Of a DNA stretch of 64,000 nt, positions 2,295 to 44,770 are shown in pieces. Positions within the stretch are counted from its first letter, which is position 1; the number at the start of each line of letters is the position of its first letter. Under the pieces are notes generated by a model, which ran no database searches, had not been told where the DNA came from, and was given only the letters and a program-made list of their open reading frames with translations. The stretch is taken from assembly GCA_023265595.1 (NCBI GenBank), contig JAHFSU010000003.1, forward strand, positions 6,178 to 70,177, read 5' to 3'. Source of the stretch: Deltaproteobacteria bacterium. GTDB taxonomy: Bacteria > UBA10199 > SPLOWO2-01-44-7. The translations under genes and the position numbers were made by a program.

Positions 2295-3016
2295 GTACGG
2301 GCCCCAAAATATTCGTGATCGACACGGTCAATCAGGTCTTCCGTAAAATCGTCGAGTGTTTTGGTAAAGCGGCGGATTCTGTTGACAAAAATATTGTAAA
2401 AAATCACCGCTGGAATGGCCGCGGCGAGACCGATGGCGGTGGCAATCAATGCCTGAGCAATGTCAGGGCCGACAATAGCCAGAGACGAAGCGCCGCTCTG
2501 GCCGATTTTAAAAAAGGCGTTCAAAATGCCCCAAACGGTTCCGAAGAGGCCGATAAACGGGGCGGCTGAAGCGGTGGTGGCGAGAAAAGAGACGCCGTAT
2601 TCGATCTGCTCCACCTCATCTTCAAAGGCACGGCGGATATCCCTTTCCACCGGATCTTGCCGGTTTTTATATTCTTCCAAAGAATGCTGGGCCGCTTGGA
2701 AAATTTCAAATGCGGGACCTTTTCGTCCCCCTTTGCGGCTTGCGATTTCGTCTAGTTTTTTGGCATCCCAGAAAAATTGGTAAAAAGATTGCGTCCGTTG
2801 CTCACTTTTTTTGATCTGTCGGTGTTTCGCAATGATAATGGCCCAACTCACAACGGAGAAAATAATCAAAATAAAGAGGGTCAGCTTCACCATCGGATCG
2901 GCATGAGCGATAAGGGAAATGAGGTGTTGGTTCTCGGTTGCGGTTTGTTCTATCGGTGCCGCCGGGTTCATGGCCTGTAATAAAAGCGATAACATAGTTT
3001 CTCCTTTGTAACTCAA
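2291..3016 (-). CDS. exbB: MotA/TolQ/ExbB proton-channel protein.
   Basis: 241 aa with three transmembrane helices and the conserved TolQ/ExbB C-terminal helices (GPxAFxxVGxxGLxAAIP-like). Confidence 0.8.
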   Translation of the reverse strand: MSYKGETMLSLLLQAMNPAAPIEQTATENQHLISLIAHADPMVKLTLFILIIFSVVSWAIIIAKHRQIKKSEQRTQSFYQFFWDAKKLDEIASRKGGRKGPAFEIFQAAQHSLEEYKNRQDPVERDIRRAFEDEVEQIEYGVSFLATTASAAPFIGLFGTVWGILNAFFKIGQSGASSLAIVGPDIAQALIATAIGLAAAIPAVIFYNIFVNRIRRFTKTLDDFTEDLIDRVDHEYFGART

Positions 3017-3017
3017 C

Positions 3018-3053
3018 GATGTATTACCAGAAAGTTAAAATACCATAAATGAA
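3018..3053 (+). promoter_or_regulatory. Copy 1 of the 35-bp conserved motif ATGTATTACCAGAAAGTTAAAATACCATAAATGA, in the exbB-murI divergent intergenic region.
   Basis: Read directly. Matches the copy at 24306-24337 with about 5 mismatches and 1 indel. Confidence 0.4.
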
Positions 3054-3120
3054 ATAATGTCAATCGAGAGGTTTGAAATAGAGATTGCATTCACCGGGCA
3101 AAGGTTCTAGGAAGCGCCGC

Positions 3121-3921
3121 ATGTCTTCAAAACCGATCGGCATCTTTGATTCCGGCGTCGGTGGATTAACGGTATTAGCCGCTATCCGCCGTCTTTTGCC
3201 GCATGAATCGCTTATTTATTTAGGCGATACCGCACGTGTGCCATATGGAAATAAATCGGCTGAAACCATTTTGAGATATGCTGAAGAATGCTGCACTTTT
3301 TTGGCCAAAAAAGGGGTGAAGGCGATTGTGATTGCTTGCAATACCGCCTCTGCCCATGCCCTTCCTTATATACAGCATCGTTTTCATTTTCCGATCTTGG
3401 GGGTTGTGGAACCGGGGGTTGAAGAGGCGTTGCGTGTGAACCAAAGCCGCCACATCGGAGTGATTGGGACTTTTGCCACTATTCAAAGCGAAATTTATGC
3501 AAAAGAATTGAAAAAGAGAAATGCTTCGGTGAGAGTCTCTTCGGTCTCCTGTCCTCTTTTTGTTCCGCTTGTGGAAGAAGATTGGTGTGACAATGAAGTG
3601 ACTCTTGCGGTGGCGGAAAAATATCTAAAAAATTTGGGAAGGGATGGAATGGATGCGCTGATCTTGGGCTGTACTCATTATCCTCTTCTTAAAAAAGTGA
3701 TCGGTGAATGTTTGGGGCCCCAAATAGCGCTAATCGATTCGGCCGAAGCAGTGGCCATTTCTCTCCAAAAGTGTTTAGCACTTTCAGCACTGAAAGCGTC
3801 AGACACTTTCGAAGGGGCGGGCGTGGAATTATATGTGACCGATTTAACGCATCGGTTTGAAACGATTGCAAGACGATTTTTAGAGGGAGATATTCCAGAG
3901 GTCAAGCGGGTTACATTATAG
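3121..3921 (+). CDS. murI: Glutamate racemase.
   Basis: IGIFDSGVGGLTV N-terminal signature and CNTAS and GCTHYPLL motifs. The ORF-track start at 3085 is probably too far upstream; the ATG at 3121 is preferred. Confidence 0.85.
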   Translation: MSSKPIGIFDSGVGGLTVLAAIRRLLPHESLIYLGDTARVPYGNKSAETILRYAEECCTFLAKKGVKAIVIACNTASAHALPYIQHRFHFPILGVVEPGVEEALRVNQSRHIGVIGTFATIQSEIYAKELKKRNASVRVSSVSCPLFVPLVEEDWCDNEVTLAVAEKYLKNLGRDGMDALILGCTHYPLLKKVIGECLGPQIALIDSAEAVAISLQKCLALSALKASDTFEGAGVELYVTDLTHRFETIARRFLEGDIPEVKRVTL

Positions 3922-3963: not shown

Positions 3964-5811
3964 ATGGCCCAATCTGATTCCCAAACCGTTGCAACGCTGG
4001 AAGCCATTGCCAAACAGTTGCGCATCGATAGTTTGAGGGCAACGACGGCCGCCGGTTCCGGTCATCCGACTACTTGTCTTTCCGCCGCCGATCTTGTCGC
4101 GGCAATTTTTTTCCATACGATGCGTTTTGATCCGAAAAATCCCTCCGATCCCAACGCAGATCGTTTTGTTTTATCCAAGGGGCATGCGGCCCCGATCCTT
4201 TGGGCCGCTTGGGCAGCCGCCGGTTTTATCTCCCGCGATGATCTTTTGAATTTGCGTAAAATCGATTCCTTTTTGGAAGGCCATCCAACCCCTCGCATGC
4301 CGTGGGTCGATGTGGCGACCGGATCCTTGGGACAAGGGCTCTCTTGCGGTTTGGGGATGGCATTCAGTTTTAAAAAAATTGATAAGAATGATGCAAAGGT
4401 CTTTGTTTTAATTGGAGACGGAGAATGTGCGGAAGGAGCGGTTTGGGAAGCGGCTTCGTTGGCCGGTTATTATAAAATGAATAATCTGATTGCCGTTGTC
4501 GATGTGAACGCGTTGGGACAGAGTCAGGCGACTATGTATCACCACAATTTGGAACCGTACACGAAAAAATTTGAAGCTTGCGGATGGCGGACGATTGAAA
4601 TCGATGGGCACAATATGCAAGCCATTCTCGGTGCATTAGATCAAGCCGCCGCAGAAAAAGAGAGACCGATTGCCGTCATTGCAAAAACGATCAAGGGAAA
4701 AGGGGTCGCCTCTTGCGAAGGGAAAGAAGGATGGCACGGGAAGGCTCTGTCTCCGGCCGATTTGGAAAAGGCGATTCAGGAAATCGGGAAAGTCCCCGAT
4801 TTTGGCAAGATGGCCGTCCGAAAACCGGCCGGATCCATGACGCCGGTGGCTTCTATTCAAGAGGCATTACCTCCTCATTACAAATTGGGTGATGGGGTGG
4901 CAACCCGTGCGGCTTATGGCGAAGCGCTTGTAAAGTTGGGGGCCGCCAATCCGAACGTTGTGGCGCTCGACGGCGACACCAAAAATTCGACCTATTCCGA
5001 AAAATTCATGAAGGCGTATCCCGAAAGATTTTTTGAATGTTTCATTGCTGAGCAAAATATGGTCGGTGTGGCGTTGGGACTGGCCGCGCGCGGTAAAATC
5101 CCTTTTGTCTCGACCTTCGGCGCTTTTTTTGCGCGGGCCTATGATCAAATTCGTATGGCCGGCATTTCGCAAAAACCGTTCAAACTCTGCGGCTCTCATG
5201 CCGGCGTCTCGATCGGTGAAGATGGGCCATCGCAGATGGCGCTGGAAGATCTGTCAATGATGCGGGCGATTCCGAATATGGCGGTTTTGTATCCTTCCGA
5301 TGCGGTCTCTTGCGAACGTCTCGTTTTTGCAGCGGCACAATATCCGGGGATGGTTTTTATTCGCACCGCCCGTCCTGCAACGCCGGTGATTTATCCCAAC
5401 GAGACCTCTTTCCGCATTGGGGGCTGTAAGGTTCTCAAGAGTTCTGAGAAAGATCAGGCGACGATTATTGGCGCCGGTATTACGCTGTTTGAAGCGCTGA
5501 AGGCTTATGATATTCTCAAAAAAGAAGGGATTGCCGTCCGCGTGATCGATCTCTATTCGCTCAAGCCGGTCGACCAGGAGACATTACTCAAAGCCGGAAA
5601 AGAGACGGGCCATTTGATCACCGTTGAAGATCATTACCCGGAAGGAGGCTTGGGCGACGCGGTTTTGGGGGCGGTCTCGGAATTTGGAATGAAGGTTACG
5701 AAGCTGGCTGTCAACCAGATTCCTCGATCGGGCAAACCGCAGGAGTTGATTCAACTTTGTGGCATCAGTGCAGAAAAAATTGTGGAGACCGTTCACGCCA
5801 TTTGCCGCTGA
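3964..5811 (+). CDS. tkt: Transketolase, with N- and C-terminal halves fused (about 615 aa).
   Basis: Thiamine-diphosphate motif GDGECAEG and a transketolase pyrimidine-binding / C-terminal domain. The ORF-track start at 3922 is a TTG immediately after the murI stop; the ATG at 3964 is more likely. Confidence 0.8.
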   Translation: MAQSDSQTVATLEAIAKQLRIDSLRATTAAGSGHPTTCLSAADLVAAIFFHTMRFDPKNPSDPNADRFVLSKGHAAPILWAAWAAAGFISRDDLLNLRKIDSFLEGHPTPRMPWVDVATGSLGQGLSCGLGMAFSFKKIDKNDAKVFVLIGDGECAEGAVWEAASLAGYYKMNNLIAVVDVNALGQSQATMYHHNLEPYTKKFEACGWRTIEIDGHNMQAILGALDQAAAEKERPIAVIAKTIKGKGVASCEGKEGWHGKALSPADLEKAIQEIGKVPDFGKMAVRKPAGSMTPVASIQEALPPHYKLGDGVATRAAYGEALVKLGAANPNVVALDGDTKNSTYSEKFMKAYPERFFECFIAEQNMVGVALGLAARGKIPFVSTFGAFFARAYDQIRMAGISQKPFKLCGSHAGVSIGEDGPSQMALEDLSMMRAIPNMAVLYPSDAVSCERLVFAAAQYPGMVFIRTARPATPVIYPNETSFRIGGCKVLKSSEKDQATIIGAGITLFEALKAYDILKKEGIAVRVIDLYSLKPVDQETLLKAGKETGHLITVEDHYPEGGLGDAVLGAVSEFGMKVTKLAVNQIPRSGKPQELIQLCGISAEKIVETVHAICR

Positions 5812-7110: not shown

Positions 7111-8150
7111 AAGCGGTTGCAAAGTTGAAAGCCCAGCCGGGGTTCGAGTTGATTGATGCGCCCGTTCCAAAACTGACCTCCCATCGTGTTTTGGTGAAGG
7201 TCAAAGCCGCATCCATTTGCGGTTCGGATGTTCATCTTTTCAAATGGGACGATTGGGCCAGCCATAACCTGACACCACCCAGAATCATCGGCCATGAAGG
7301 GGCGGGAGAAGTGATTGAAGTGGGCGAACAGGTGGAAGGAATCCAAATCGGGGATCGGGTCTCCTTTGAAAGTCATATCCCTTGTCTCCATTGCGCCCGT
7401 TGTCGCACCGGCGAAATGCATTTGTGTCGCGATTTAAAAACGATCGGTTTCGGAGCCGATGGTTGCTTTGCTGAATATATTGCTATGCCTGAAATCTGTT
7501 GCGTCAGAAATGACCGGTCGATGCCGTGGGAGATTGCCTCCATTCAAGAACCCCTTGGAAATTCGGTTTATGCCGTTTCCGAAAGTGATGTCGCCGGAAA
7601 AACCGTTGCCGTTTTTGGTGATGGGCCGACCGGATTATTTGCAGTGGCTGTGGCCCGTTCACTCGGCGCCACCACGATTTATGCGGTGGGGGCAAGTCCT
7701 TTTCGTCTAGGACTCATGAAAAAAATGAAACCGGATATTTTGATCGATGTTACAAAGGAAGAGGCGGCCGAAATCATTTTAGAAAAAACGCATGGCAATG
7801 GAGTGGATGTTGTTTTGGAGATGAGCGGCGCCGAAAAGGCCATTCATGACGGTTTCAAATCGATTCGAAATGGGGGGACATTCACCGCATTTGGAATTCC
7901 TAGCAAGCCGCTTCAAATAGATTTTGCAAAAGAGGTGATTTTAAAAGGGATCAAGTTGATCGCGATTCATGGCCGAAAAATGTTCGATACATGGAAGCAG
8001 ATGGGAGATCTCTTAAACAGCGGGCGTCTCGATGTGACGCCGGTTATTACCCACAAAATGCCGATGGCCAAAATTTCAGAGGCCTTTGCCCTGCTCACCA
8101 AAGATCCGATCGAAGCCGGTAAAATCGTCCTCTATCCTCCTACCTGGTAA
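7107..8150 (+). CDS. tdh: L-threonine 3-dehydrogenase (zinc-dependent medium-chain dehydrogenase).
   Basis: N-terminus MKAVAKLKAQPG...ICGSDVH closely resembles E. coli Tdh. GHEGAGEV zinc site and a Rossmann GDGPTG motif. Confidence 0.85.
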   Translation: MKAVAKLKAQPGFELIDAPVPKLTSHRVLVKVKAASICGSDVHLFKWDDWASHNLTPPRIIGHEGAGEVIEVGEQVEGIQIGDRVSFESHIPCLHCARCRTGEMHLCRDLKTIGFGADGCFAEYIAMPEICCVRNDRSMPWEIASIQEPLGNSVYAVSESDVAGKTVAVFGDGPTGLFAVAVARSLGATTIYAVGASPFRLGLMKKMKPDILIDVTKEEAAEIILEKTHGNGVDVVLEMSGAEKAIHDGFKSIRNGGTFTAFGIPSKPLQIDFAKEVILKGIKLIAIHGRKMFDTWKQMGDLLNSGRLDVTPVITHKMPMAKISEAFALLTKDPIEAGKIVLYPPTW

Positions 8151-8200
8151 GGGAAGGCTCCTCCCTACCTGGTAAGGAAACGTTAATTTCTACCAGGTAG
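8142..8200. promoter_or_regulatory. Three copies of the 9-bp palindrome TACCWGGTA with exact 25-bp centre-to-centre spacing (8142-8150, 8167-8175, 8192-8200). Candidate regulator/enhancer binding array.
   Basis: Read directly: cTACCTGGTAagg...ccTACCTGGTAagg...tcTACCAGGTAggg. The first copy overlaps the tdh stop codon. The same motif with the same 25-bp spacing recurs at 34177-34210. Confidence 0.5.
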
Positions 8201-8231
8201 GGGAATTGTCAAAATGATAACAAAAAGGGTG

Positions 8232-8255
8232 AAAATTGACACCTGCGTCAATTTT
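8232..8255. promoter_or_regulatory. Perfect palindrome AAAATTGAC-acctgc-GTCAATTTT, a candidate operator or activator site about 90-115 bp upstream of the sigma-54 promoter.
   Basis: 9-bp perfect arms. The TTGAC/GTCAA half-site resembles the palindromes at 41961-42070. Confidence 0.4.
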
Positions 8256-8323
8256 TTGACGTCCGTCTGATTTCTATCTAATTGAAATAACTAATTAAAA
8301 TATACGGGCGGATAATTTCTGAT

Positions 8324-8339
8324 TGGCACGGCACTTGCT
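8324..8339 (+). promoter_or_regulatory. Sigma-54 (RpoN) promoter TGGCACG-gcac-TTGCT.
   Basis: Exact match to the -24/-12 consensus TGGCACG-N4-TTGCW, located 27 bp upstream of the ATG at 8366. An AT-rich possible IHF region (8290-8312) and palindromes lie upstream. Confidence 0.65.
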
Positions 8340-8365: not shown

Positions 8366-10036
8366 TTGCCAAATCGTATTAAAATAACGATCGGATTTTT
8401 TAGTCTTTTGATTTTTTCTCTTCAATGGGGTTGTGGCTCCAGCACCGGTAGTGGTGGCGCCTCTGCGCAGACGGTCAGCGGGACGGGAGGCAATGAAGCA
8501 AGCTCTCCGTCCGCCATGGCGGCAGGCGATGTGATGTATGTCGGTTTTAGTGGAATTTCCGCGAGTGTCAGTTTTAGTGGTGCGAGCGGCACCTATCAAT
8601 TGTTGCTTCAGTCGCAGGCAACCGATGCCGCCTCTAAATCAGTGACCGCTTCAGATACCAATGTTTCCAAATCGATTGGCCTTGGCGATCCCTTGGTTGA
8701 TGATGTCATGAAATCAGAGTCGGAATCGGTTCAGAATCAATTGGAGGCGATATTAAGAAATGAAGAACGGTTTTTATTGAATGTCCCTTGGAATGGAAGT
8801 GTTTCACAACCGGTCTCAACAAATGGAACTGTTTCCGCCGGCAAATCGGTTGGCGGCGGTTCGGGTGTTTCTCCCTCTTTGTCGGTCAATGACAGCGATA
8901 CATTTCGTGTCTTGAAATCTCTGAGTGATGTGACCCAATATCGTACCGTTACGGCAACGGTCAAGTGTGTCAACGATACGGTGGCGATTTATGTTGATGA
9001 TGAAATTTCCAGCACCAATCCTTCTGATTTGTCGCAGGCCAATATCAATACCTTGTGTTCCGAATTTAAAGACTCGCTCGCAACGACGTCCAGCGTTTTT
9101 GGATCGTATCCGGATATCAATAATGATGGTGTAGCTGTTGCGCTGATTACGCCGGCTGTCAATCGATTAGGGGCTTCGAGCGGTGGTATCGTGACCGGTT
9201 TTTTCTATTCGGGCGATCTTTTTGCAAGAAGCAGTTCGATTCCGGCTAGTAATTATCGCGAGATTGTCTATCTTGTCTCTCCCGATTCGGGCGGTGTTTA
9301 TGGCACCAAAATTACCAATGCCTTTGCGATGTCCAACTTTTTGCCTGCTGTTTTTCCGCACGAGATGCAGCATCTGATCAATTATTACCAGCATACTATT
9401 GTCCTTAGCGGCGATGCAGAAGAGGACTGGCTCAATGAGGCCTTGTCCCATTTCACGGAAGATTTGGTTGGCTATGGTCGCGAAAATTATTCGCGCTACG
9501 ATCTCTTTTTGGATTCTCCGCAAAGTTATGCCGTCGTGACCTCTGCAAGTCCCAGTTTGGCGCAAAGGGGAGGAGGGTATCTGTTTTTGAGATATCTTTA
9601 TGAACAGAGTGGGTCGAGTTCGACATTTTTGAAAAATCTGGTGCAGACGACCAATACCGGTATCAACAACTTGGTGGCTGCTTATCCTTCGAAACCGTCC
9701 GATTTTGATTCGTTCGGTGAATTTTTAAGACGCTGGGCGGTGGCCCTTGCCTATACCAATGCAGGATTAACTACTAATTCCAAGCTCACTTACAATGCCC
9801 GAACCTATAATAACAGTACAGGCAACTGGCAGGGAGTTTGTATGATCTGTTCGGCAGAAGATGGTCGTTCGACAGTGTTGAGCGGCCCTTCTTTCGGCAC
9901 TTACAGCGCCGGAACCAGCTACACCATCAAGGCTTCTGCAACGCGGTTTTTGAATCTTTCTTCGACCCCATCTTCCTTGAGTTTGACCGGCGCCAGTGGC
10001 AGTTCCCCCGCCGCCATCATTTTGAAAACGAAGTAA
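8366..10036 (+). CDS. Secreted putative lipoprotein, Ser/Gly/Thr-rich, with an HExxH zinc-metallopeptidase motif (HEMQH).
   Basis: Signal peptide with Cys (LQWGC). FPHEMQHLINYY contains HExxH. No closer family recognised. Confidence 0.5.
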   Translation: MPNRIKITIGFFSLLIFSLQWGCGSSTGSGGASAQTVSGTGGNEASSPSAMAAGDVMYVGFSGISASVSFSGASGTYQLLLQSQATDAASKSVTASDTNVSKSIGLGDPLVDDVMKSESESVQNQLEAILRNEERFLLNVPWNGSVSQPVSTNGTVSAGKSVGGGSGVSPSLSVNDSDTFRVLKSLSDVTQYRTVTATVKCVNDTVAIYVDDEISSTNPSDLSQANINTLCSEFKDSLATTSSVFGSYPDINNDGVAVALITPAVNRLGASSGGIVTGFFYSGDLFARSSSIPASNYREIVYLVSPDSGGVYGTKITNAFAMSNFLPAVFPHEMQHLINYYQHTIVLSGDAEEDWLNEALSHFTEDLVGYGRENYSRYDLFLDSPQSYAVVTSASPSLAQRGGGYLFLRYLYEQSGSSSTFLKNLVQTTNTGINNLVAAYPSKPSDFDSFGEFLRRWAVALAYTNAGLTTNSKLTYNARTYNNSTGNWQGVCMICSAEDGRSTVLSGPSFGTYSAGTSYTIKASATRFLNLSSTPSSLSLTGASGSSPAAIILKTK

Positions 10037-16283: not shown

Positions 16284-18680
16284 TTAAATTTTCTGATGTC
16301 GTTTTTCCAAATAGGCTAAAAAAGCAGGGAAGAAGACGACGGTTGAGAGGAGTGTAGCCAAAAGGCCTAAAATAGCTACTTTCCCAAGGGAGGCGAGTCC
16401 GCCGTGATTGGCGAAAATAAGTCCCAAAAATCCCAACGCATTGGTGGTTGAGGCGACTAAGGAGGCCAGTCCCGCCGTCTGAATGACGTTTGCAATCGAA
16501 CCGCTCCCCGTTTCTTTATATCGATGGTAAATATGGATGCAGTTGTCGATGCTCATCCCCATGATGGCAGGAACAATCACGATGCTATAAAAATCGAGTT
16601 TCAATCCGGTCAGAAACAACATCCCGATGAGCCAGATTTCACCAAGCAGAATGGGGAGCGTTACCAAGATTACTTTTTTGTAATTTCTAAGATCGAGCCA
16701 CAAAAGAATTAAAATCACGAGAATGGCAATGCCGATCGCCTTGGGGACATCGTGCATCATTGTTTTCAACACATTCGCAAAAATGAGGGGGTCACTGACG
16801 GCATGAAATATTTTGATCGGTGTTTTGATTTCGCCCACATCTTCCAAAAAACGGAGCGCATTGCGTCCGTCATCTAGGGAGAGCCCTTTTTTCGATTGGA
16901 TAAAAGCAAAGACCCCTTCCCCTTTTGCCCCTTTGAAAACTTTGATGACCTCTTCGGGGATTTCTTGCGGTTCAATGAAGGTCACTTCGCGCAGCGCCTT
17001 TTTGAATCGTTCCAAATCTTTTTTCTTTTCTTCAGGAACCAGCGTTAGCGTTTTATCCTCTAAAATTTTTTCGATCTCTTTTAAAACCGCCAGTTTCTGT
17101 TTTTGTTCCACTTGATAAAGATCATAATAAGAGAAAAAAGATTCAATCGTCGGGGTCTCTTGGTCATTTTTGATTTTATCGAGGACAGCCTTCTTTAGGG
17201 CCTGAGCCTCTTCGGGGCTCTGGATCAGCACGGTTCCGGGCCCGACCAGTTTATCGACGGTTTCGCGGTATTTAGCCTTGGCAACGGCTGATGCCGGAAT
17301 CCTCGGTTTCAGGCGGGAAAAATCGTATTCAAACAACTCCTTTCGAAAACCGATGAAAATGGAAAAAAGGGTCAAAACAAGGCTCGCCGTCAAAATCAAT
17401 TTTGGGGATACAAAAGATTTCAATTCTATTTTTGAAAAAAGCGGGGCTTTGGGCTGGTGTAATATTTTCAGTTTTTCGGCCAAGACAACAAACGGGACAA
17501 AAAAGAGGAGGTAGGCAAAATAGACGCACAAGAGCCCAACGCCGGCGATGAGTCCAAATTGGGAGAATCCTTTGAAGTCATTCAAAATCAGCGAAAGAAA
17601 AATGGCAGAGACCGCCGCCACGGAAAAACCGATCGAACGGCCCGTTTTTTCCATCACTTCAAAAAGGGCCGCTTTCATATTCAAACCGTGATGGCGTTCA
17701 TAATTATAGCGCGACAGAAAATGGATGCCGTTTTCAACCCCTAACCCCGACAAGACGCTGTAAAGAAATGAGGTGATAATGTTCAGTTTGTCGACCAGAT
17801 AAAAAGTGACGCCAAATGCGGCGACAAGGCCGATGGTCAAGGGGGCAAAAACCAGAAAAGGGGCGGAGAGACTTCGGAAATAGAAAACCAGCAGTAACAC
17901 AATGGCCGTGATCGAGATGACCCCCGCAATTTTCAAATCGCGAATCAATGTTCTGTATTCATCGACACGATTTTTGGCTTTGCCGGCAAAATAAATACCG
18001 TTCGGCCTCTCCCCTTTTAAAGAACCGAGCCATTTCAGGGCACAAGGTTCCACCGATTCATAAAAACGTTTGTTGAAGGCAATGCTGGTGTCGGTTCCCT
18101 GGGCGAGTACAAACAGGGAATAGAGCGTTTTCTCTTTATTCCGGAAATAGGGACTGGTGACACCGCCTTCTGTTTGTTCCCGATATTTGCTTTCCAGATC
18201 GCTGTATTGGAAGGATTCATCCTGACCTTCCCCCAGATCGATAAAAAGCCCCCCCAATTTTTTTCTCTGGATTTCACGATCGAGCCTCTCTTTGAGCGTT
18301 TGCAAATCGGGGAGTTCCAGAAACAGGAGTTTGTGATCATAAAAAAAATCGTAGCCGGTTTTTTTGAAATCGACTCGTTGGACCAAAGGACACGATTGCA
18401 AAGAACCGGCCAGATTTTTGAGCCATCCCTCCATTTTTTGTGGACTGCCTTCCAATGTGATCGAAAGGACGGTCGCGTCTTCCAGCTTGTTTCTGATTTT
18501 GTGGATTTCCTGAACGGCCGGGTAATGGTCGGGAAGAAGGCTGATCAGATCGGTGCTGATATTTTTATAAAGACGGACGGTTTTAGGGACGCTCCACCAA
18601 CAGACGAGTCCGCCCAGAATCAAAAAAAACCAAAAATAGCGGACGGAAAAATCGATCCATTTTTTAAAAAAAATTTGCAT
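16284..18680 (-). CDS. MMPL/RND-superfamily exporter (12 transmembrane helices, two large periplasmic loops).
   Basis: 798 aa with duplicated 6-helix + loop topology and MMPL-like conserved regions (e.g. GMSIDNxIH, MGMxVDAxI-like). Confidence 0.7.
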   Translation of the reverse strand: MQIFFKKWIDFSVRYFWFFLILGGLVCWWSVPKTVRLYKNISTDLISLLPDHYPAVQEIHKIRNKLEDATVLSITLEGSPQKMEGWLKNLAGSLQSCPLVQRVDFKKTGYDFFYDHKLLFLELPDLQTLKERLDREIQRKKLGGLFIDLGEGQDESFQYSDLESKYREQTEGGVTSPYFRNKEKTLYSLFVLAQGTDTSIAFNKRFYESVEPCALKWLGSLKGERPNGIYFAGKAKNRVDEYRTLIRDLKIAGVISITAIVLLLVFYFRSLSAPFLVFAPLTIGLVAAFGVTFYLVDKLNIITSFLYSVLSGLGVENGIHFLSRYNYERHHGLNMKAALFEVMEKTGRSIGFSVAAVSAIFLSLILNDFKGFSQFGLIAGVGLLCVYFAYLLFFVPFVVLAEKLKILHQPKAPLFSKIELKSFVSPKLILTASLVLTLFSIFIGFRKELFEYDFSRLKPRIPASAVAKAKYRETVDKLVGPGTVLIQSPEEAQALKKAVLDKIKNDQETPTIESFFSYYDLYQVEQKQKLAVLKEIEKILEDKTLTLVPEEKKKDLERFKKALREVTFIEPQEIPEEVIKVFKGAKGEGVFAFIQSKKGLSLDDGRNALRFLEDVGEIKTPIKIFHAVSDPLIFANVLKTMMHDVPKAIGIAILVILILLWLDLRNYKKVILVTLPILLGEIWLIGMLFLTGLKLDFYSIVIVPAIMGMSIDNCIHIYHRYKETGSGSIANVIQTAGLASLVASTTNALGFLGLIFANHGGLASLGKVAILGLLATLLSTVVFFPAFLAYLEKRHQKI

Positions 18681-21723: not shown

Positions 21724-21836
21724 GGGGGAGCGGCATTTGATAATTATATAGTAATTTCAATTACTTATAATTTATCCTGAGCGATTCAGTTTTGGCAACG
21801 GTTTTGCAAAGTTAAAGGGGAGCAAAAGGGGTATAT

Positions 21837-22196
21837 ATGTCTGCTATCGGCTCCGTTGGTTTGAAAAATTATGATGCCTTGCTGAAGGCGCTTTCCAGCT
21901 ATCGTCCGACTCTAAGCGGAGTCAAGGCGCTTGAGGAAGCCGCTTCCAAAGTCGACATCAATCTGAATCAGGCATTTGCAGAGGCCGGTTTGGGAAAATT
22001 CAAATCGGCTCTAAGAGGTATTAACCCGAGTCTATTCGGTTCAAAAGCGCCCGCCCTTTATCCCGGTCAAGCAGAGGTTGTTGCCGCTCTTTTTATGAAA
22101 ATTGAGAAACAAAATCCTGCCTTGGCGGGAGAACTGGCCGCAGAATGGTTTCATACCGTCGCAAAGGAGGTCCCCATTTATGGCAAGCAAAACTAA
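21837..22196 (+). CDS. Small hypothetical protein (119 aa, Ala-rich, helical).
   Basis: ORF with a GGAG-type ribosome-binding site. No known motifs. Confidence 0.45.
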   Translation: MSAIGSVGLKNYDALLKALSSYRPTLSGVKALEEAASKVDINLNQAFAEAGLGKFKSALRGINPSLFGSKAPALYPGQAEVVAALFMKIEKQNPALAGELAAEWFHTVAKEVPIYGKQN

Positions 22197-34176: not shown

Positions 34177-34210
34177 TACCTGGTAGAAAAGAGGCTTTCC
34201 CTACCAGGTA
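34177..34210. promoter_or_regulatory. Two TACCWGGTA palindromes (34177-34185, 34202-34210) spaced 25 bp, the same motif and phasing as at 8142-8200.
   Basis: Read directly: cgcTACCTGGTAgaa ... cccTACCAGGTAgaa. They lie about 30-80 bp upstream of motif copy f. Confidence 0.5.
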
Positions 34211-40587: not shown

Positions 40588-40703
40588 CTATGGATAATAA
40601 ATCACGGTGTCATTGCGCCTGTCCGCCGGGTGTTTGGCGGAAGCCCCGAAGGGCCGAAACAATCCAGAGGAAATTCGCGAGAGATTGCTTCGTCCTCCTC
40701 ACT

Positions 40704-41984
40704 ATGCTCGGAGTCCTCGCAATGACAACCCTTCCGGCTTTTGCCAACACGCTTCCCCCCAATCTTGCGATTTTGGAAAAAGAGCCGGCCGATTTAAAAA
40801 TAATCGAAAAATTGGTTGACTATCGGTGGTTTGATCAAGCGTTAAAGGCTTTAATAAATTATCCGGATACGGATGAAAAGGCCCTCTTTTTAAAAGCCCG
40901 ATGTTGGATGGGGCTTAAAAGTTACAAAGAGGCCCTCGAATTATTTCACCAACTTGCAGAATCGTCTTCCTCTTTTGAAATGCGTCGCGAGGCCCTTTTG
41001 AAAGAGGCGATGATTTTTGTTCGACTCAAAAAATACGAGGCCGCGTTGGATATCTACAATCGTCTGCTTGAAGAAAATCGCGGGAAAAAAAGAGGGATCA
41101 GAGAAATTGCGAAGCGGGCTTTTAAAACGGCGTTGGAAGCGAAAAAATATGATGAAGGCCTGCTGTTTTTGGGACACTTCAGCGGAGATGAAGCCCGTTG
41201 GTGGCGCGGTTGGTGCCATTTTCGAAAAGAGGAATATGATGCCGCATTAACCTATTGGGATAAAATTTCCAAACGGAGTGATTTTTACCCGCAGACCCTT
41301 TTTTGGAAATCCCAAATTTTCAAAAAAATCAAAAATCCGGAGAAGAGTGATTCTTGTTTTCAGACACTTCTTCAGGAATATCCCTTCCATTATTATAGTT
41401 TTTTGGCTCTTTTTGAAAAAATTCCAAGGAAAAAGGATCGACTCGATCTGATTTCTACCCATTGGTCTGGTGACAGGGATAAATCGAAATGGATGGAGCG
41501 CTATCCACGAACATTTGAAATCGAAGTCAAAAAAGCAGCAAAAAAAAGAGACCTCGATTCCTATTTTGTTTTTGCCGTGATTTGGCAGGAATCCCATTTT
41601 CGCGAATGGGTGGTTTCTCCAAGTGGCGCGATCGGTTTAATGCAGCTGATGCCGCAAACGGCTTTGACATTGGCCCATGCGATTCAATTAAGACATTTTG
41701 ATCTTGTCCAAATTTTGAAACCGGAAATGAACATCAAGCTCGGTTCCCTTTACCTCTCTTTTTTGAAAAAACTTTTTTCCGGCCATCTTCCGCTGGCCGT
41801 TGCCGCCTATAATGCCGGGGAAGAAGCGGTTAGCCGGTGGTTGAGCCTTCGCAAAAAGGATTCTCTCCCGCTGATTATCGAAGAAATCCCTTACGACGAA
41901 ACCCAAAAATATACTAAAAAGGTGCTTTTGGCCCATTGGATTTACCATTGGCTCTACAGAGGGGACGTTCCACCCGTTTTTTGA
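40704..41984 (+). CDS. Lytic murein transglycosylase (SLT domain) with N-terminal TPR-like repeats.
   Basis: SLT catalytic motif (ES...GLMQLMP, AYNAG). Signal peptide from the Met at 40704. The ORF-track start at 40590 was rejected. Confidence 0.75.
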   Translation: MLGVLAMTTLPAFANTLPPNLAILEKEPADLKIIEKLVDYRWFDQALKALINYPDTDEKALFLKARCWMGLKSYKEALELFHQLAESSSSFEMRREALLKEAMIFVRLKKYEAALDIYNRLLEENRGKKRGIREIAKRAFKTALEAKKYDEGLLFLGHFSGDEARWWRGWCHFRKEEYDAALTYWDKISKRSDFYPQTLFWKSQIFKKIKNPEKSDSCFQTLLQEYPFHYYSFLALFEKIPRKKDRLDLISTHWSGDRDKSKWMERYPRTFEIEVKKAAKKRDLDSYFVFAVIWQESHFREWVVSPSGAIGLMQLMPQTALTLAHAIQLRHFDLVQILKPEMNIKLGSLYLSFLKKLFSGHLPLAVAAYNAGEEAVSRWLSLRKKDSLPLIIEEIPYDETQKYTKKVLLAHWIYHWLYRGDVPPVF

Positions 41985-42070
41985 CGCTTTTTGGCACCAC
42001 CGTCAAAAAAATAGGGGGACGTTCCACCAATTTTTTGACGCTTTTTGATGCCACCGTCAAAAAAATGACG
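41961..42070. repeat. Two tandem 53-bp direct repeats, each containing the palindrome TTTTTTGACG-N14-CGTCAAAAAA. Candidate enhancer/activator binding sites upstream of a sigma-54 promoter.
   Basis: Read directly. Repeat 1 overlaps the last 8 codons of the slt gene. Confidence 0.5.
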
Positions 42071-42089
42071 GTTCCGATAGGATCAAAAT

Positions 42090-42105
42090 TGGCATCGATA
42101 TTGCT
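42090..42105 (+). promoter_or_regulatory. Sigma-54 promoter TGGCATC-gata-TTGCT.
   Basis: Matches TGGCACG-N4-TTGCW at 15 of 16 positions, about 45 bp upstream of the ATG at 42149. Confidence 0.55.
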
Positions 42106-42148
42106 AGATAAACGGTGTGGTCTCAATTTTCAAAAAAAGGATAAAATT

Positions 42149-44719
42149 ATGAAAAAAATATTGTTTTTATTGCCTATTTTTATTTTTTTCATGGCCTGTT
42201 CGGAGAAGAGTTCGCAACAGCCTCAGGGGAATGGAGGAGGGGGGAATGGTGGTGCCGAGGGTGGTCCTGTCGTACCGCCACCCGCCGATGGTGGTGGAGA
42301 TCTTCTCCCTCCCGGACCGACTGGGGGAGGTGATGTCGCCATTCTTCCACCGGGGCCGATCGTTGTTATTGAGGAAGATTGTGAAGATAATTTGGATAAC
42401 AATGCCGATGGGGCCACTGATTGCGCCGATGTCCGGTGCGCCCAAAAAGAGGTTTGCCAAGCACCTGCCGGTGGTGGTGGGGGCGGTGGCGGAGCAGGTG
42501 GAATAAACCAGTTGAGTGGTACTGTCACTATGGGTGGTTTGCCGACAGGAATGGGTGGCTTGTCCGGTCAGCTTGGTAACCTTGCACAGCAGTTTTCTGT
42601 TCGAATCGGAGGAGGAGGTGGTGGTGCTCTCCCTCCCGGTGTTATAGTGCCGCCGATACCTCCCATGGGTGGGGCTGGAGGTGGAGCGGGTGGAGGTGGT
42701 GTAGAACCTCCGGTTGCTACAACAGCCTCTTCGAACTGCCCGGAAGATGGAATCTTGGATGTTAAAACAGATATTGAAGTGATGCGTGGCAATGTCAGCA
42801 ATCTAGTGGCCCATAATGAACATGCCGTTATAGAAGGGAGTCTGGTTTTGGAGATTAAACTCATTCCGTGGGTTGCCGGCATCAAAGCCCCGCGCGATCG
42901 TCGTTACAACTACTCTTGGAGATGGTTGACCGACGAAGGTCGTGACTCGGGAGATGCGGCGGACGGTATTATCTCCCCCTCTTTTACTTTCAGAAATGCC
43001 GGCACGAAACATGTCAAGTTGGTTGTGGAAGATACCGAGTGTCAGCATAATGGGAGCAATATTGTCGGTAAGGGACTTGTCGATATTATTGTGAACCATC
43101 CACCAATCACTGCAAACCCTTCCCAAATTATTGTAGTAGGTCCTGCCGGAGAGAATTGTGAACAGCCGGTACAGTCCGTTGAAATTAGTCCTGTTTTGAT
43201 TTCCGGCCAGGCAAGAGTCTCTCCACAACTGGTAGAAGGGTTGCATGCTCCGTATCAGATTCGTTTTGAGGCAAAAGTGAATGGGGCCCTCTCTACGCAC
43301 CCGGGTTATACCTATAATTGGATGGTTGATGATGCCCCGATGCTCAATGCCGTTGCCGGAAATAGAAACAATATTTCAAACACATTTAACGATTTGGGTT
43401 TTCATCAAGTCAATGTGACCGTGACCGACAACTGTGGCAATTCGGCCTATGATCCGATCCGGATTGTCCCCGGAGAAGCGCCTCCCCCTGCAGCTCAAGC
43501 GGCATGTACAGACTGCAAACCGGAGTGGGAGAAATTTGATATAGGTTCTGGTATTCACCAGTTGACCGTGGCCAGCGGCGACAATATTGCCGTGATGGTT
43601 GCTGTGACACCACTTCGTAAAAATGTCTTCTATCTCCTTTTTGATTTGCAGAATCGGCGTTTTGTTTCCGATTGGAAACCGTTTGAAAAATTATCTCAAG
43701 TGACCTGCGATGCAAACACACCGGTTCAGTTTGATAAACCCTCCGTGGCCGTCACAAAAAATGGCAACAAATTTATTGTCACGATGGAAAAAGAATGTGG
43801 CAACGACAGGAACAACGTTTTTTATGAGAAATTTACAAAACAGGCCGATGGTACTTACCGAGAGGGGGATCCCGATTACATGGGCCAGCGCGGCAATAAA
43901 TGGACGCCGGTTGCAATGGTCAATGATAACAACGATTTTGCCATCAGCTGGCTTTTTGAGGAGATTAATGAGCCAAAGCTACTTCAAAATACCCGATTTA
44001 ATTATAAAGTCCAAAAAGCCTATTTTAAAATTCTCAAATCAAATGGAGGTCAAATCGGTCCCTCCCGTTTTGTCACAACATGGTGGCAGGGGGGATGGCA
44101 TGAGCCCGATTTTGAAAACCGTAATGTGGTTAACGAAGAGCTGGAAAGAAGGCTCAAAGGGACGGCGTCCGGGAACAGTTTTTGCGCTAGTTTCAGAAGA
44201 ATTTTGAAAAATAATTACGGCACTTCCGTTCTTTCCGATAAAAGTGAATTGGTCTGCGTGAATGCAAATGGAGACCTCAATATGCGGGATACAAACAGTT
44301 TTCGTCTGGATACCCCCGCATTGGCCTCTGCAAAATTCGCGGCAGGAAACATGCTCGTTGCTGTTGGGATCCAAAGCGACGGCAGATTGAAATTTGATAC
44401 ATGGCTCGGCAATGAAAAGAAAGCTTATTACACAGTAAGCCAAAATTGGCCCGATACGGTTGGTAATATCACGGCCCTCAATTCTTACGGATTGCTTCAA
44501 GTCATCTTGAGTAATCCGTCGGGGAACACCGTTATGGTTTTTCATCCGGGAGCTGTTGGTTCCGATAATGCCAATACAATGATTCCCGGCCACGCCTTTA
44601 GTGTTCCTGGCGCCAATCTAAGCAATACTGTCTATTCCGCCGATCAAAACCGCCACGCCATCAGTGTTTGGGTGCAAAACAACGTTGCTTGGGGGATCAC
44701 CGGTTCGGTTGAGCCATAA
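42149..44719 (+). CDS. Large lipoprotein with Gly/Pro-rich low-complexity linkers and PKD-like domains.
   Basis: Lipobox-like FMAC. Poly-Gly tracts. PKD-like strands (FTFRNAGTKHVKLVVEDTECQ, HQVNVTVTDNCGN). Confidence 0.5.
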   Translation: MKKILFLLPIFIFFMACSEKSSQQPQGNGGGGNGGAEGGPVVPPPADGGGDLLPPGPTGGGDVAILPPGPIVVIEEDCEDNLDNNADGATDCADVRCAQKEVCQAPAGGGGGGGGAGGINQLSGTVTMGGLPTGMGGLSGQLGNLAQQFSVRIGGGGGGALPPGVIVPPIPPMGGAGGGAGGGGVEPPVATTASSNCPEDGILDVKTDIEVMRGNVSNLVAHNEHAVIEGSLVLEIKLIPWVAGIKAPRDRRYNYSWRWLTDEGRDSGDAADGIISPSFTFRNAGTKHVKLVVEDTECQHNGSNIVGKGLVDIIVNHPPITANPSQIIVVGPAGENCEQPVQSVEISPVLISGQARVSPQLVEGLHAPYQIRFEAKVNGALSTHPGYTYNWMVDDAPMLNAVAGNRNNISNTFNDLGFHQVNVTVTDNCGNSAYDPIRIVPGEAPPPAAQAACTDCKPEWEKFDIGSGIHQLTVASGDNIAVMVAVTPLRKNVFYLLFDLQNRRFVSDWKPFEKLSQVTCDANTPVQFDKPSVAVTKNGNKFIVTMEKECGNDRNNVFYEKFTKQADGTYREGDPDYMGQRGNKWTPVAMVNDNNDFAISWLFEEINEPKLLQNTRFNYKVQKAYFKILKSNGGQIGPSRFVTTWWQGGWHEPDFENRNVVNEELERRLKGTASGNSFCASFRRILKNNYGTSVLSDKSELVCVNANGDLNMRDTNSFRLDTPALASAKFAAGNMLVAVGIQSDGRLKFDTWLGNEKKAYYTVSQNWPDTVGNITALNSYGLLQVILSNPSGNTVMVFHPGAVGSDNANTMIPGHAFSVPGANLSNTVYSADQNRHAISVWVQNNVAWGITGSVEP

Positions 44720-44770
44720 TTTTTCTCTTTTCTTGACACTCCTGTGTGAGGCTGGTACCTGCGCCTCGAA

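Follow-up and report, generated by a model that had tools for sequence, protein, structure and literature searches.

What drives the gene for a glycine-rich lipoprotein with a PKD domain in an uncultured bacterium, and what part, if any, is played by the tandem repeat that begins inside the preceding lytic transglycosylase gene, slt, and lies upstream of the lipoprotein gene? The locus belongs to a bacterium labelled "Deltaproteobacteria", with a G+C content of 47%, and the window is the whole stretch of DNA that was analysed, 64,000 nucleotides (nt) of contig JAHFSU010000003.1. We found that a sigma-54 promoter, here called P2, very probably stands in front of the lipoprotein gene, and with moderate confidence we put forward an overall picture that combines this promoter, an upstream region for a regulator, and a recent duplication. 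Comparisons were made with a lineage DNA sample of 868 kb around the orthologues of a second promoter of the window, P1, for which 78 related metagenome loci and one locus from ENA were fetched. The coordinates of the features are collected in Table 1.

The probable promoter upstream of the PKD lipoprotein gene

P2 is an exact match to TGGCAY-N5-TTGCW. The slightly shorter pattern TGGCAY-N5-TTGC occurs exactly twice in the 64-kb window, at 8324 (P1) and at 42090 (P2), as compared to 0.31 matches expected. Both matches are intergenic and on the + strand, with the TGG 42 and 59 nt, respectively, before the start codon of a lipoprotein gene. The P1 gene product is a 556-aa HExxH lipoprotein with many homologues, and no homology was found between it and the PKD lipoprotein, which has a single other homologue in a collection of 5.8 billion proteins, on a 5'-truncated contig of 2.2 kb.

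The original prediction had credited P2 with 15 of 16 consensus positions, a figure that includes unspecified ones; against TGGCACG-N4-TTGCW, P2 agrees at 10 of the 12 specified positions. The promoter call itself stands, as the core match is exact, the placement is correct, the lineage makes use of sigma-54 (see below), and no sigma-70-like promoter was found upstream (+ strand, 41241-42363). When the GC of P2 is taken as -13/-12, the usual spacing from the -12 element gives a predicted transcription start near 42116. Scans found no terminator-like site between 41611 and 43000, and the slt-PKD spacer had no match to an Rfam family.

Table 1. Positions of the promoter, repeat copies, palindromes, boxes and genes discussed in the text, in window coordinates.
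Feature	Coordinates	Strand	Remarks
slt gene, TPR repeats and SLT lytic transglycosylase domain	40590..41984	+	Pfam SLT match 4.8e-27
Repeat copy 1 (54-bp period)	41961..42014	.	41961-41984 is slt coding sequence
Repeat copy 2	42015..42068	.	47/52 positions the same as in copy 1
Palindrome 1	41977..42010	.	Arms 41977-41986 and 42001-42010; centre at about -122 from the predicted transcription start
Palindrome 2	42031..42064	.	Arms 42031-42040 and 42055-42064, the same as in palindrome 1; centre at about -68 from the predicted start
P2 box CCGTCA-AAAAAA-TGACGG	42054..42071	.	Core GTCAAAAAAATGAC at 42056-42069, 34 nt before the TGG; about -60 to -47
Sigma-54 -24/-12 promoter P2, TGGCATCGATATTGCT	42090..42105	+	GG 42091-42092 and GC 42103-42104, exactly 10 nt apart
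Ribosome-binding site AAGGA	42137..42141	+	7 nt before the ATG at 42149; read from the sequence
Gly-rich lipoprotein gene, 856 aa, PKD domain	42149..44719	+	Signal peptide MKKILFLLPIFIFFMAC; lipobox Cys is residue 17
P1 box GTCAATTTTTTGAC	8247..8260	.	77 nt before the TGG of P1 (8324-8339)

Sigma-54 promoters in related loci

The P1 promoter, TGGCAC-N5-TTGCT, is conserved in 32 of the 41 orthologous loci that have enough upstream sequence. It lies 25-140 nt before the estimated start and is kept where the proteins are only 35-40% identical (down to about 35%). The lineage DNA contains 63 exact sigma-54 consensus sites, 49 of them non-redundant, while about 1.7 would be expected by chance in our own estimate. 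Locus L135 carries, at 2509-3906 on the - strand, a gene for an enhancer-binding protein (EBP) with FHA, Sigma54_activat (1.9e-70) and HTH_8 domains, located beside a P1-family gene and convergent with it; a six-frame motif scan revealed no other EBP gene in the lineage DNA. The conservation of P1, the 63 consensus sites and this EBP gene indicate that sigma-54 promoters are real and common in the lineage, and a chance origin of P2 is therefore very unlikely.

Other matches were also seen. In L128, one exact consensus (18446-18461) lies 53 nt before a 129-aa open reading frame (ORF), and another (5348-5362) is found where an IS200-like Y1 transposase gene starts and is preceded, 54-64 nt upstream, by a CGTCA-N5-TGACG palindrome. 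Within the window, TGGCAACGGTTTTGCA at 21793-21808 has one mismatch to the sigma-54 core and is separated by 28 nt from the ATG of a downstream 119-aa ORF (21837-22196) with a good ribosome-binding site. The site is without the GTCA-N6-TGAC box described below, and it may be a third sigma-54 promoter of the window.

A box and half-sites shared by P1 and P2

The upstream regions of the P1 family were aligned on the promoter and then scanned for motifs. One of three conserved elements is GTCA-N6-TGAC, a palindrome of 14 bp whose centre is rich in A/T. In the lineage DNA 25 copies of it were counted, 11 of them within the 11.8 kb that lie up to 260 nt upstream of the non-redundant sigma-54 sites. 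In the same 11.8 kb, every other gap length from 2 to 12 yields only 0 or 1 copies, and 2000 dinucleotide shuffles gave a mean of 0.07 boxes and a maximum of 2. Exactly two boxes are present in the window, one at P1 (8247-8260) and one at P2 (42056-42069). The P2 box is composed of the right arm of palindrome 2 and the TGAC of a partial third repeat unit, and its extended form is perfect.

The half-site is enriched as well. CGTCA followed by five A/T positions (CGTCA-W5) was found 17 times in the 48 sigma-54 upstream regions other than that of P2, nearly all of them of the P1 family, whereas 59 other orderings of the letters CGTCA averaged 1.3 and never exceeded 6. At P2, five CGTCA half-sites fall within 90 bp (41982, 42001, 42036, 42055, and 42066), which is the densest cluster seen, and the arms of both P2 palindromes are exactly the CGTCA-W5 half-site. 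The earlier proposal that P1 and P2 have regulator half-sites in common is thus supported by the enrichment of CGTCA-W5 and of the box, but the conserved unit is GTCA-N6-TGAC and not TTGAC/GTCAA. The TTGAC-N6-GTCAA palindrome at 8232-8255, which had been taken as the shared site at P1, only coincides in part with the left half of the box and with GGGT-N8-ACAC (8227-8242).

Two further elements and an A/T-rich stretch mark the P1 family. GGGT-N8-ACCC is nearly fixed at -97 to -104 from the TGG, TATCA-N3-TGATA is found at about -132, and an IHF-like A/T-rich stretch at about -50, and this layout, present at 8207-8242 of the window and in loci L128-L197, is kept down to about 35% protein identity. 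The position of the box varies, being about -190 in one group and about -80 in the closest relatives of the window (-77 at P1), while L133 and L135, which are without GGGT-N8-ACCC, have the box at -107 and -129. GGGT-N8-ACCC is the best candidate for a P1-specific activator site. P2 resembles the P1-family promoters in having a sigma-54 promoter with a lipoprotein gene downstream, the GTCA-N6-TGAC box, and CGTCA-W half-sites. It differs from them in the absence of both GGGT-N8-ACCC (near -100 in the family) and TATCA-N3-TGATA; P1, for its part, is without the 54-bp duplication, and the two proteins are unrelated.

Short repeats of other kinds were also seen. Directly upstream of the -24 element of P1 orthologues, L147 has about four copies of CGATTCG (~3120-3167) and L139 about three copies of CACCGAT (~9850-9887), which may serve to vary the distance from the promoter to the upstream sites. 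Five exact copies of the 9-bp palindrome TACCWGGTA are present in the window, as compared to 0.05 expected, in two arrays with a 25-bp period (8141-8199 and 34177-34210). The first array precedes the P1 region and starts with a copy that overlaps the TAA stop codon of an alcohol dehydrogenase gene; the second is upstream of the row of CarboxypepD_reg, Tricorn-like, and slt genes. These copies are probably the operators of some regulator.

The tandem repeat and its origin in slt

A repeat search of the window returned two 52-nt copies, 41961-42012 and 42015-42066, which are 90% identical and 54 nt apart from start to start. Tandem Repeats Finder reported the same array (41961-42066, period 54, 2.0 copies, score 177) as the strongest in the window. 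Two near-identical direct repeats of 53 bp had been described here; the tandem repeat is confirmed, and its period is 54. The copies differ in two clusters, CG>AA at 42029-42030 and GCA>ATG at 42048-42050, which leave the palindrome arms untouched, and a partial third unit, GACGGTTCC (42067-42075), follows directly after copy 2. Both copies are also seen in Logan contigs of SRR14366766, and an ENA assembly has a 164-nt spacer, the same length as in the window; each of these may share reads with the window assembly. The Logan assembly breaks near the start of copy 2 (L001 ends at window position 42028 and L008 starts at 42017), although the copies have no 31-mer in common. A variable copy number in the population might account for this break inside the repeat, as might low coverage.

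No further copy of the repeat unit was found in the window (up to 3 mismatches, beyond chance level) or in the lineage DNA, and two unit-specific patterns had no match in viral contigs. In the DNA covered by these searches, the unit thus does not behave as a dispersed intergenic repeat, similar to repetitive extragenic palindromes or miniature inverted-repeat transposable elements (REP/MITE-like), or as the end of a mobile element.

The slt gene offers a nearer source. Its product ends in WLYRGDVPPVF. Repeat copy 1 starts with the seven final codons (GDVPPVF, 21 nt), or 24 nt together with the stop codon, a TGA at 41982-41984 that sits within the left arm of palindrome 1. Even the nearest slt homologues have no more than 46-56% identity, and homologues finish in similar tails of the G-x-x-P-x-x-F type (EGKLPLLF, RGQFPKDLF, and RNAPPPKIF), so that the slt tail appears to be native. 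Since repeat copy 1 opens with slt coding DNA, the array is a local duplication of the slt 3' end together with about 30 nt of downstream DNA, and, the tail being native in copy 1, the slt coding sequence recurs in copy 2 in noncoding form. The 5' module of the unit (GGGGACGTTCCACC) was derived from the coding part of slt. A GACG(G)TTCC microhomology is present on both sides of the 54-bp unit, and the duplication probably arose through it. The GGGGACGTTCC module was considered as a regulator site and rejected, because it is not recurrent in the lineage DNA and is of coding origin; its likeness to GGGT-N8-ACCC (6/8 positions, with a G+C-rich centre) is at chance level.

In the database form of the slt product, the protein has 420 aa and its start is near 40722 (P0001, 100% identical). 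The gene order in relatives is a CarboxypepD_reg protein, a Tricorn-like protein, and slt, followed by pstSCAB-phoU and two deoxynucleoside kinase genes, or by other genes. In distant relatives slt is followed directly by pstSCAB-phoU or a helicase, and both the PKD gene and the repeat are absent; the contig of the nearest slt relative (L002) stops within slt. As the slt loci of relatives are without the PKD gene, the gene, its promoter, and the repeats seem to be specific to the branch of this organism. When window positions 41985-44770 are set against L003 9273-9386, the PKD gene and its promoter appear as an insertion between slt and the phosphate-uptake genes. At this place the window has PhoU_div and a PHO4 transporter where other members have pstSCAB-phoU.

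The palindromes within the repeat

Each repeat copy contains the palindrome TTTTTTGACG-N14-CGTCAAAAAA, so the two palindromes with 10-bp arms that had been predicted are both present (41977-42010 and 42031-42064). Palindrome 1 consists of two CGTCA-W half-sites facing outward. The half-sites of the N14 palindrome are 20 bp apart and are turned the other way, relative to each other, from those of the box. Its relaxed core, TTTTGACG-N8-22-CGTCAAAA, has 2 matches in the window and 0.00 in 100 shuffles. No other occurrence of the N14 palindrome was found in the 868 kb of related DNA, and a scan of a genome-contig collection for TTTTTGACG-N12-16-CGTCAAAAA was uninformative, giving at least 119 unrelated matches in diverse taxa, with the source genome absent from the 80 loci listed. 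The inverted-repeat centres are at suitable upstream positions for enhancer sites. A role of the N14 palindrome as a recurrent enhancer unit is not supported by the 868 kb of related DNA.

Proposed regulation of P2

These results suggest a picture in which P2 would drive the PKD lipoprotein gene from the predicted start, and the 130 bp upstream of P2 would serve as a regulator-binding region. We infer that a dimeric helix-turn-helix regulator, for which an EBP with a Fis-type helix-turn-helix is the leading candidate, would nucleate on the complete box and then spread or oligomerise cooperatively over the weaker half-sites in both repeat copies, with candidate dimer centres near 41978, 42008, 42032, and 42062 (spacing of 30, 24, and 30 bp). 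From this close range the regulator would activate, rather than repress, the sigma-54 holoenzyme and thereby control open-complex formation. When the slt 3' end was recently duplicated in place, a downstream half-site pair would have been copied with it, which added two upstream half-sites, doubling their number, and left the promoter-proximal box intact. The duplication may strengthen the assembly of the oligomer, or it may be neutral. Least certain are the nature of the regulator (activator or accessory factor) and the importance, if any, of copy 1.

Several observations weigh against this picture. The complete box precedes the -24 element by no more than about 20 bp, nearer than classical enhancer sites, and a single dimer cannot bind the N14 arrangement (TGAC...GTCA, inward-facing) as it would the box. 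All ten other promoters that bear the box belong to one gene family, that of P1, and the association of the box with sigma-54 may thus come down to one regulon plus P2. As the element with a fixed position in this family is GGGT-N8-ACCC, the protein that binds the box may be an accessory regulator or a repressor rather than an EBP. The five differences between the repeat copies amount to only two mutational events, so the identity of the arms carries no statistical weight for selection. There is no orthologous P2 region in which the conservation of the promoter or of the sites could be examined, and a six-frame motif scan of the window, together with Pfam scans of 30 of its about 50 major ORFs, turned up neither rpoN nor an EBP gene.

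Alternative explanations

The alternatives concern the binding protein, the repeat, and the promoter itself. That the box and half-sites bind a repressor or an accessory non-EBP regulator, with the activator site of P2 elsewhere or absent (e.g., an activator that works from solution), is in our judgement somewhat unlikely. The palindrome that is fixed in the P1 orthologues is GGGT-N8-ACCC while the box moves between -77, -107, -129, and about -190, and the P2 box, at -34 from the TGG, directly adjoins the promoter, as is typical of sites that act by occlusion. However, the box agrees with the site of FleQ, a known EBP that itself binds close to sigma-54 promoters, and in L133 and L135, which are without GGGT-N8-ACCC, the box is found somewhat upstream of the usual -100 of that element. 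This alternative overlaps with the preferred explanation, from which it differs only in the binding protein, and the likelihoods given here are not meant to add up to one. A neutral origin of the tandem repeat, by recent slippage, with function confined to the promoter and at most the proximal box, we hold to be unlikely, although the coding origin and the young age of the repeat fit it. The first 24 nt of copy 1 are a native-like slt tail, which makes half of the 5' part of the unit coding DNA that was duplicated into a noncoding position. The microhomology stands on both sides of the unit, the copies differ by just two clustered changes, and the N14 palindrome has no counterpart in the related DNA. 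Upstream of P1, at 8139-8199, another tandem duplication takes in a stop codon, and events of this kind seem to occur in the genome. Nevertheless, the arms are exactly the half-site that is enriched at sigma-54 promoters of the lineage, the presumed single-copy ancestor already had three half-sites, and neutrality is not something that two copies can show.

Two other possibilities do away with the upstream DNA sites or with the promoter. The palindromes might act as RNA, forming hairpins at the 3' end of the slt transcript that would terminate or stabilise it, and the first hairpin does begin at the slt stop codon. The region also folds better than shuffled sequences on both strands (z = -2.9 and -3.3), but any palindromic DNA site folds likewise. 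Neither stem is followed by a U-tract (AATAGG or ATGACG is found instead), the T and A runs pair together, the stems are A/T-rich with 4 of 10 G/C pairs, the terminator scan was negative, and Rfam gave no match. Since, moreover, the arm sequence is enriched upstream of sigma-54 promoters away from gene ends, we consider a role as RNA very improbable. We give hardly any credence to the last possibility, that P2 is a chance match and that transcription of the PKD gene comes from the slt operon. Co-transcription is conceivable because no terminator was found between slt and the PKD gene, but an exact TGGCAY-N5-TTGCW in a given spacer of 165 nt, on the right strand, has a probability of about 1.6e-4 by our own estimate. 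Furthermore, the only two matches in the window are both at promoter positions, and the box that accompanies sigma-54 promoters in the lineage sits 20 bp upstream of this one.

Implications

If the proposed regulation is correct, it provides a cis-regulatory vocabulary for an uncultured groundwater lineage, made up of the sigma-54 promoter, GTCA-N6-TGAC, CGTCA-W, and GGGT-N8-ACCC. Regulons of surface lipoproteins would become predictable from metagenomes, and the locus would be a small example of how clusters of regulatory sites grow by local duplication. A bolder version, which we regard as speculative and rather doubtful, is that the FleQ-box-like CGTCA-N6-TGACG and its half-sites form a lineage-wide code that ties the sigma-54 promoters of secreted or surface lipoprotein genes to one regulator. 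P2 would then show how a multi-site enhancer comes into being: a tandem duplication taking in the 3' end of the adjacent coding gene would have doubled the half-sites ahead of an orphan lipoprotein gene that was newly acquired. The copy number of the repeat might vary in the population, given the break of the Logan assembly within it.

Comparison with known regulatory systems

Sigma-54 promoters with upstream activator sites for an EBP are well known, e.g., NtrC at glnAp2 and XylR at Pu. P2 resembles them in the GG and GC 10 nt apart and in inverted-repeat sites about 50-125 bp upstream. Its sites are also unequal, with one complete and several partial ones, and the candidate dimer centres are near 30 bp apart. 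Upstream activator sites generally lie about 70-200 bp upstream, are inverted repeats, and are usually two or more in number; the P2 region agrees with this pattern, with palindrome centres at about -122 and -68 and the box at about -53. In contrast to the classical promoters, the strongest site of P2, with its centre at about -53, is unusually near the promoter, the outer sites are tail-to-tail half-sites rather than complete dimer sites, and no IHF-like site is evident in the short spacer.

The closest likeness of the box itself is to that of FleQ, for which the consensus sequences GTCaNTAAAtTGAC (P. aeruginosa) and GTCAaAAAAtTGAC (P. putida) have been given (PMC6120874, PMC8125075). The P2 box, GTCAAAAAAATGAC, agrees with the P. 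putida consensus GTCAaAAAAtTGAC at 13 of 14 positions, and the reverse complement of the P1 box, GTCAAAAAATTGAC, agrees at all 14 and equals it (PMC6120874). The FleQ box is likewise a 14-bp palindrome with GTCA and TGAC arms and an A/T-rich centre of 6 nt. FleQ is itself an EBP that can bind close to sigma-54 promoters, often at two sites per promoter. It is able to act from sites in their vicinity (PMC6120874). On the other hand, the lineage studied here is unrelated and uncultured, and the targets are lipoprotein genes as compared to the flagellar and exopolysaccharide genes of FleQ. The FleQ motif is also reported to be unreliable genome-wide in P. fluorescens (PMC6120874), and according to both papers it does not predict reliably on a genome-wide scale. 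Moreover, the likeness rests on only eight specified bases, so that it may be due to convergence or coincidence. The comparison with known EBP sites that the original prediction called for has thus found a counterpart for the box, whose binder may or may not be an EBP. We take the resemblance to FleQ as a lead and not as evidence of membership. Overall, the P2 region is an ordinary kind of regulatory region, which adds a lineage-specific set of motifs to those already known and calls for no new kind of mechanism.

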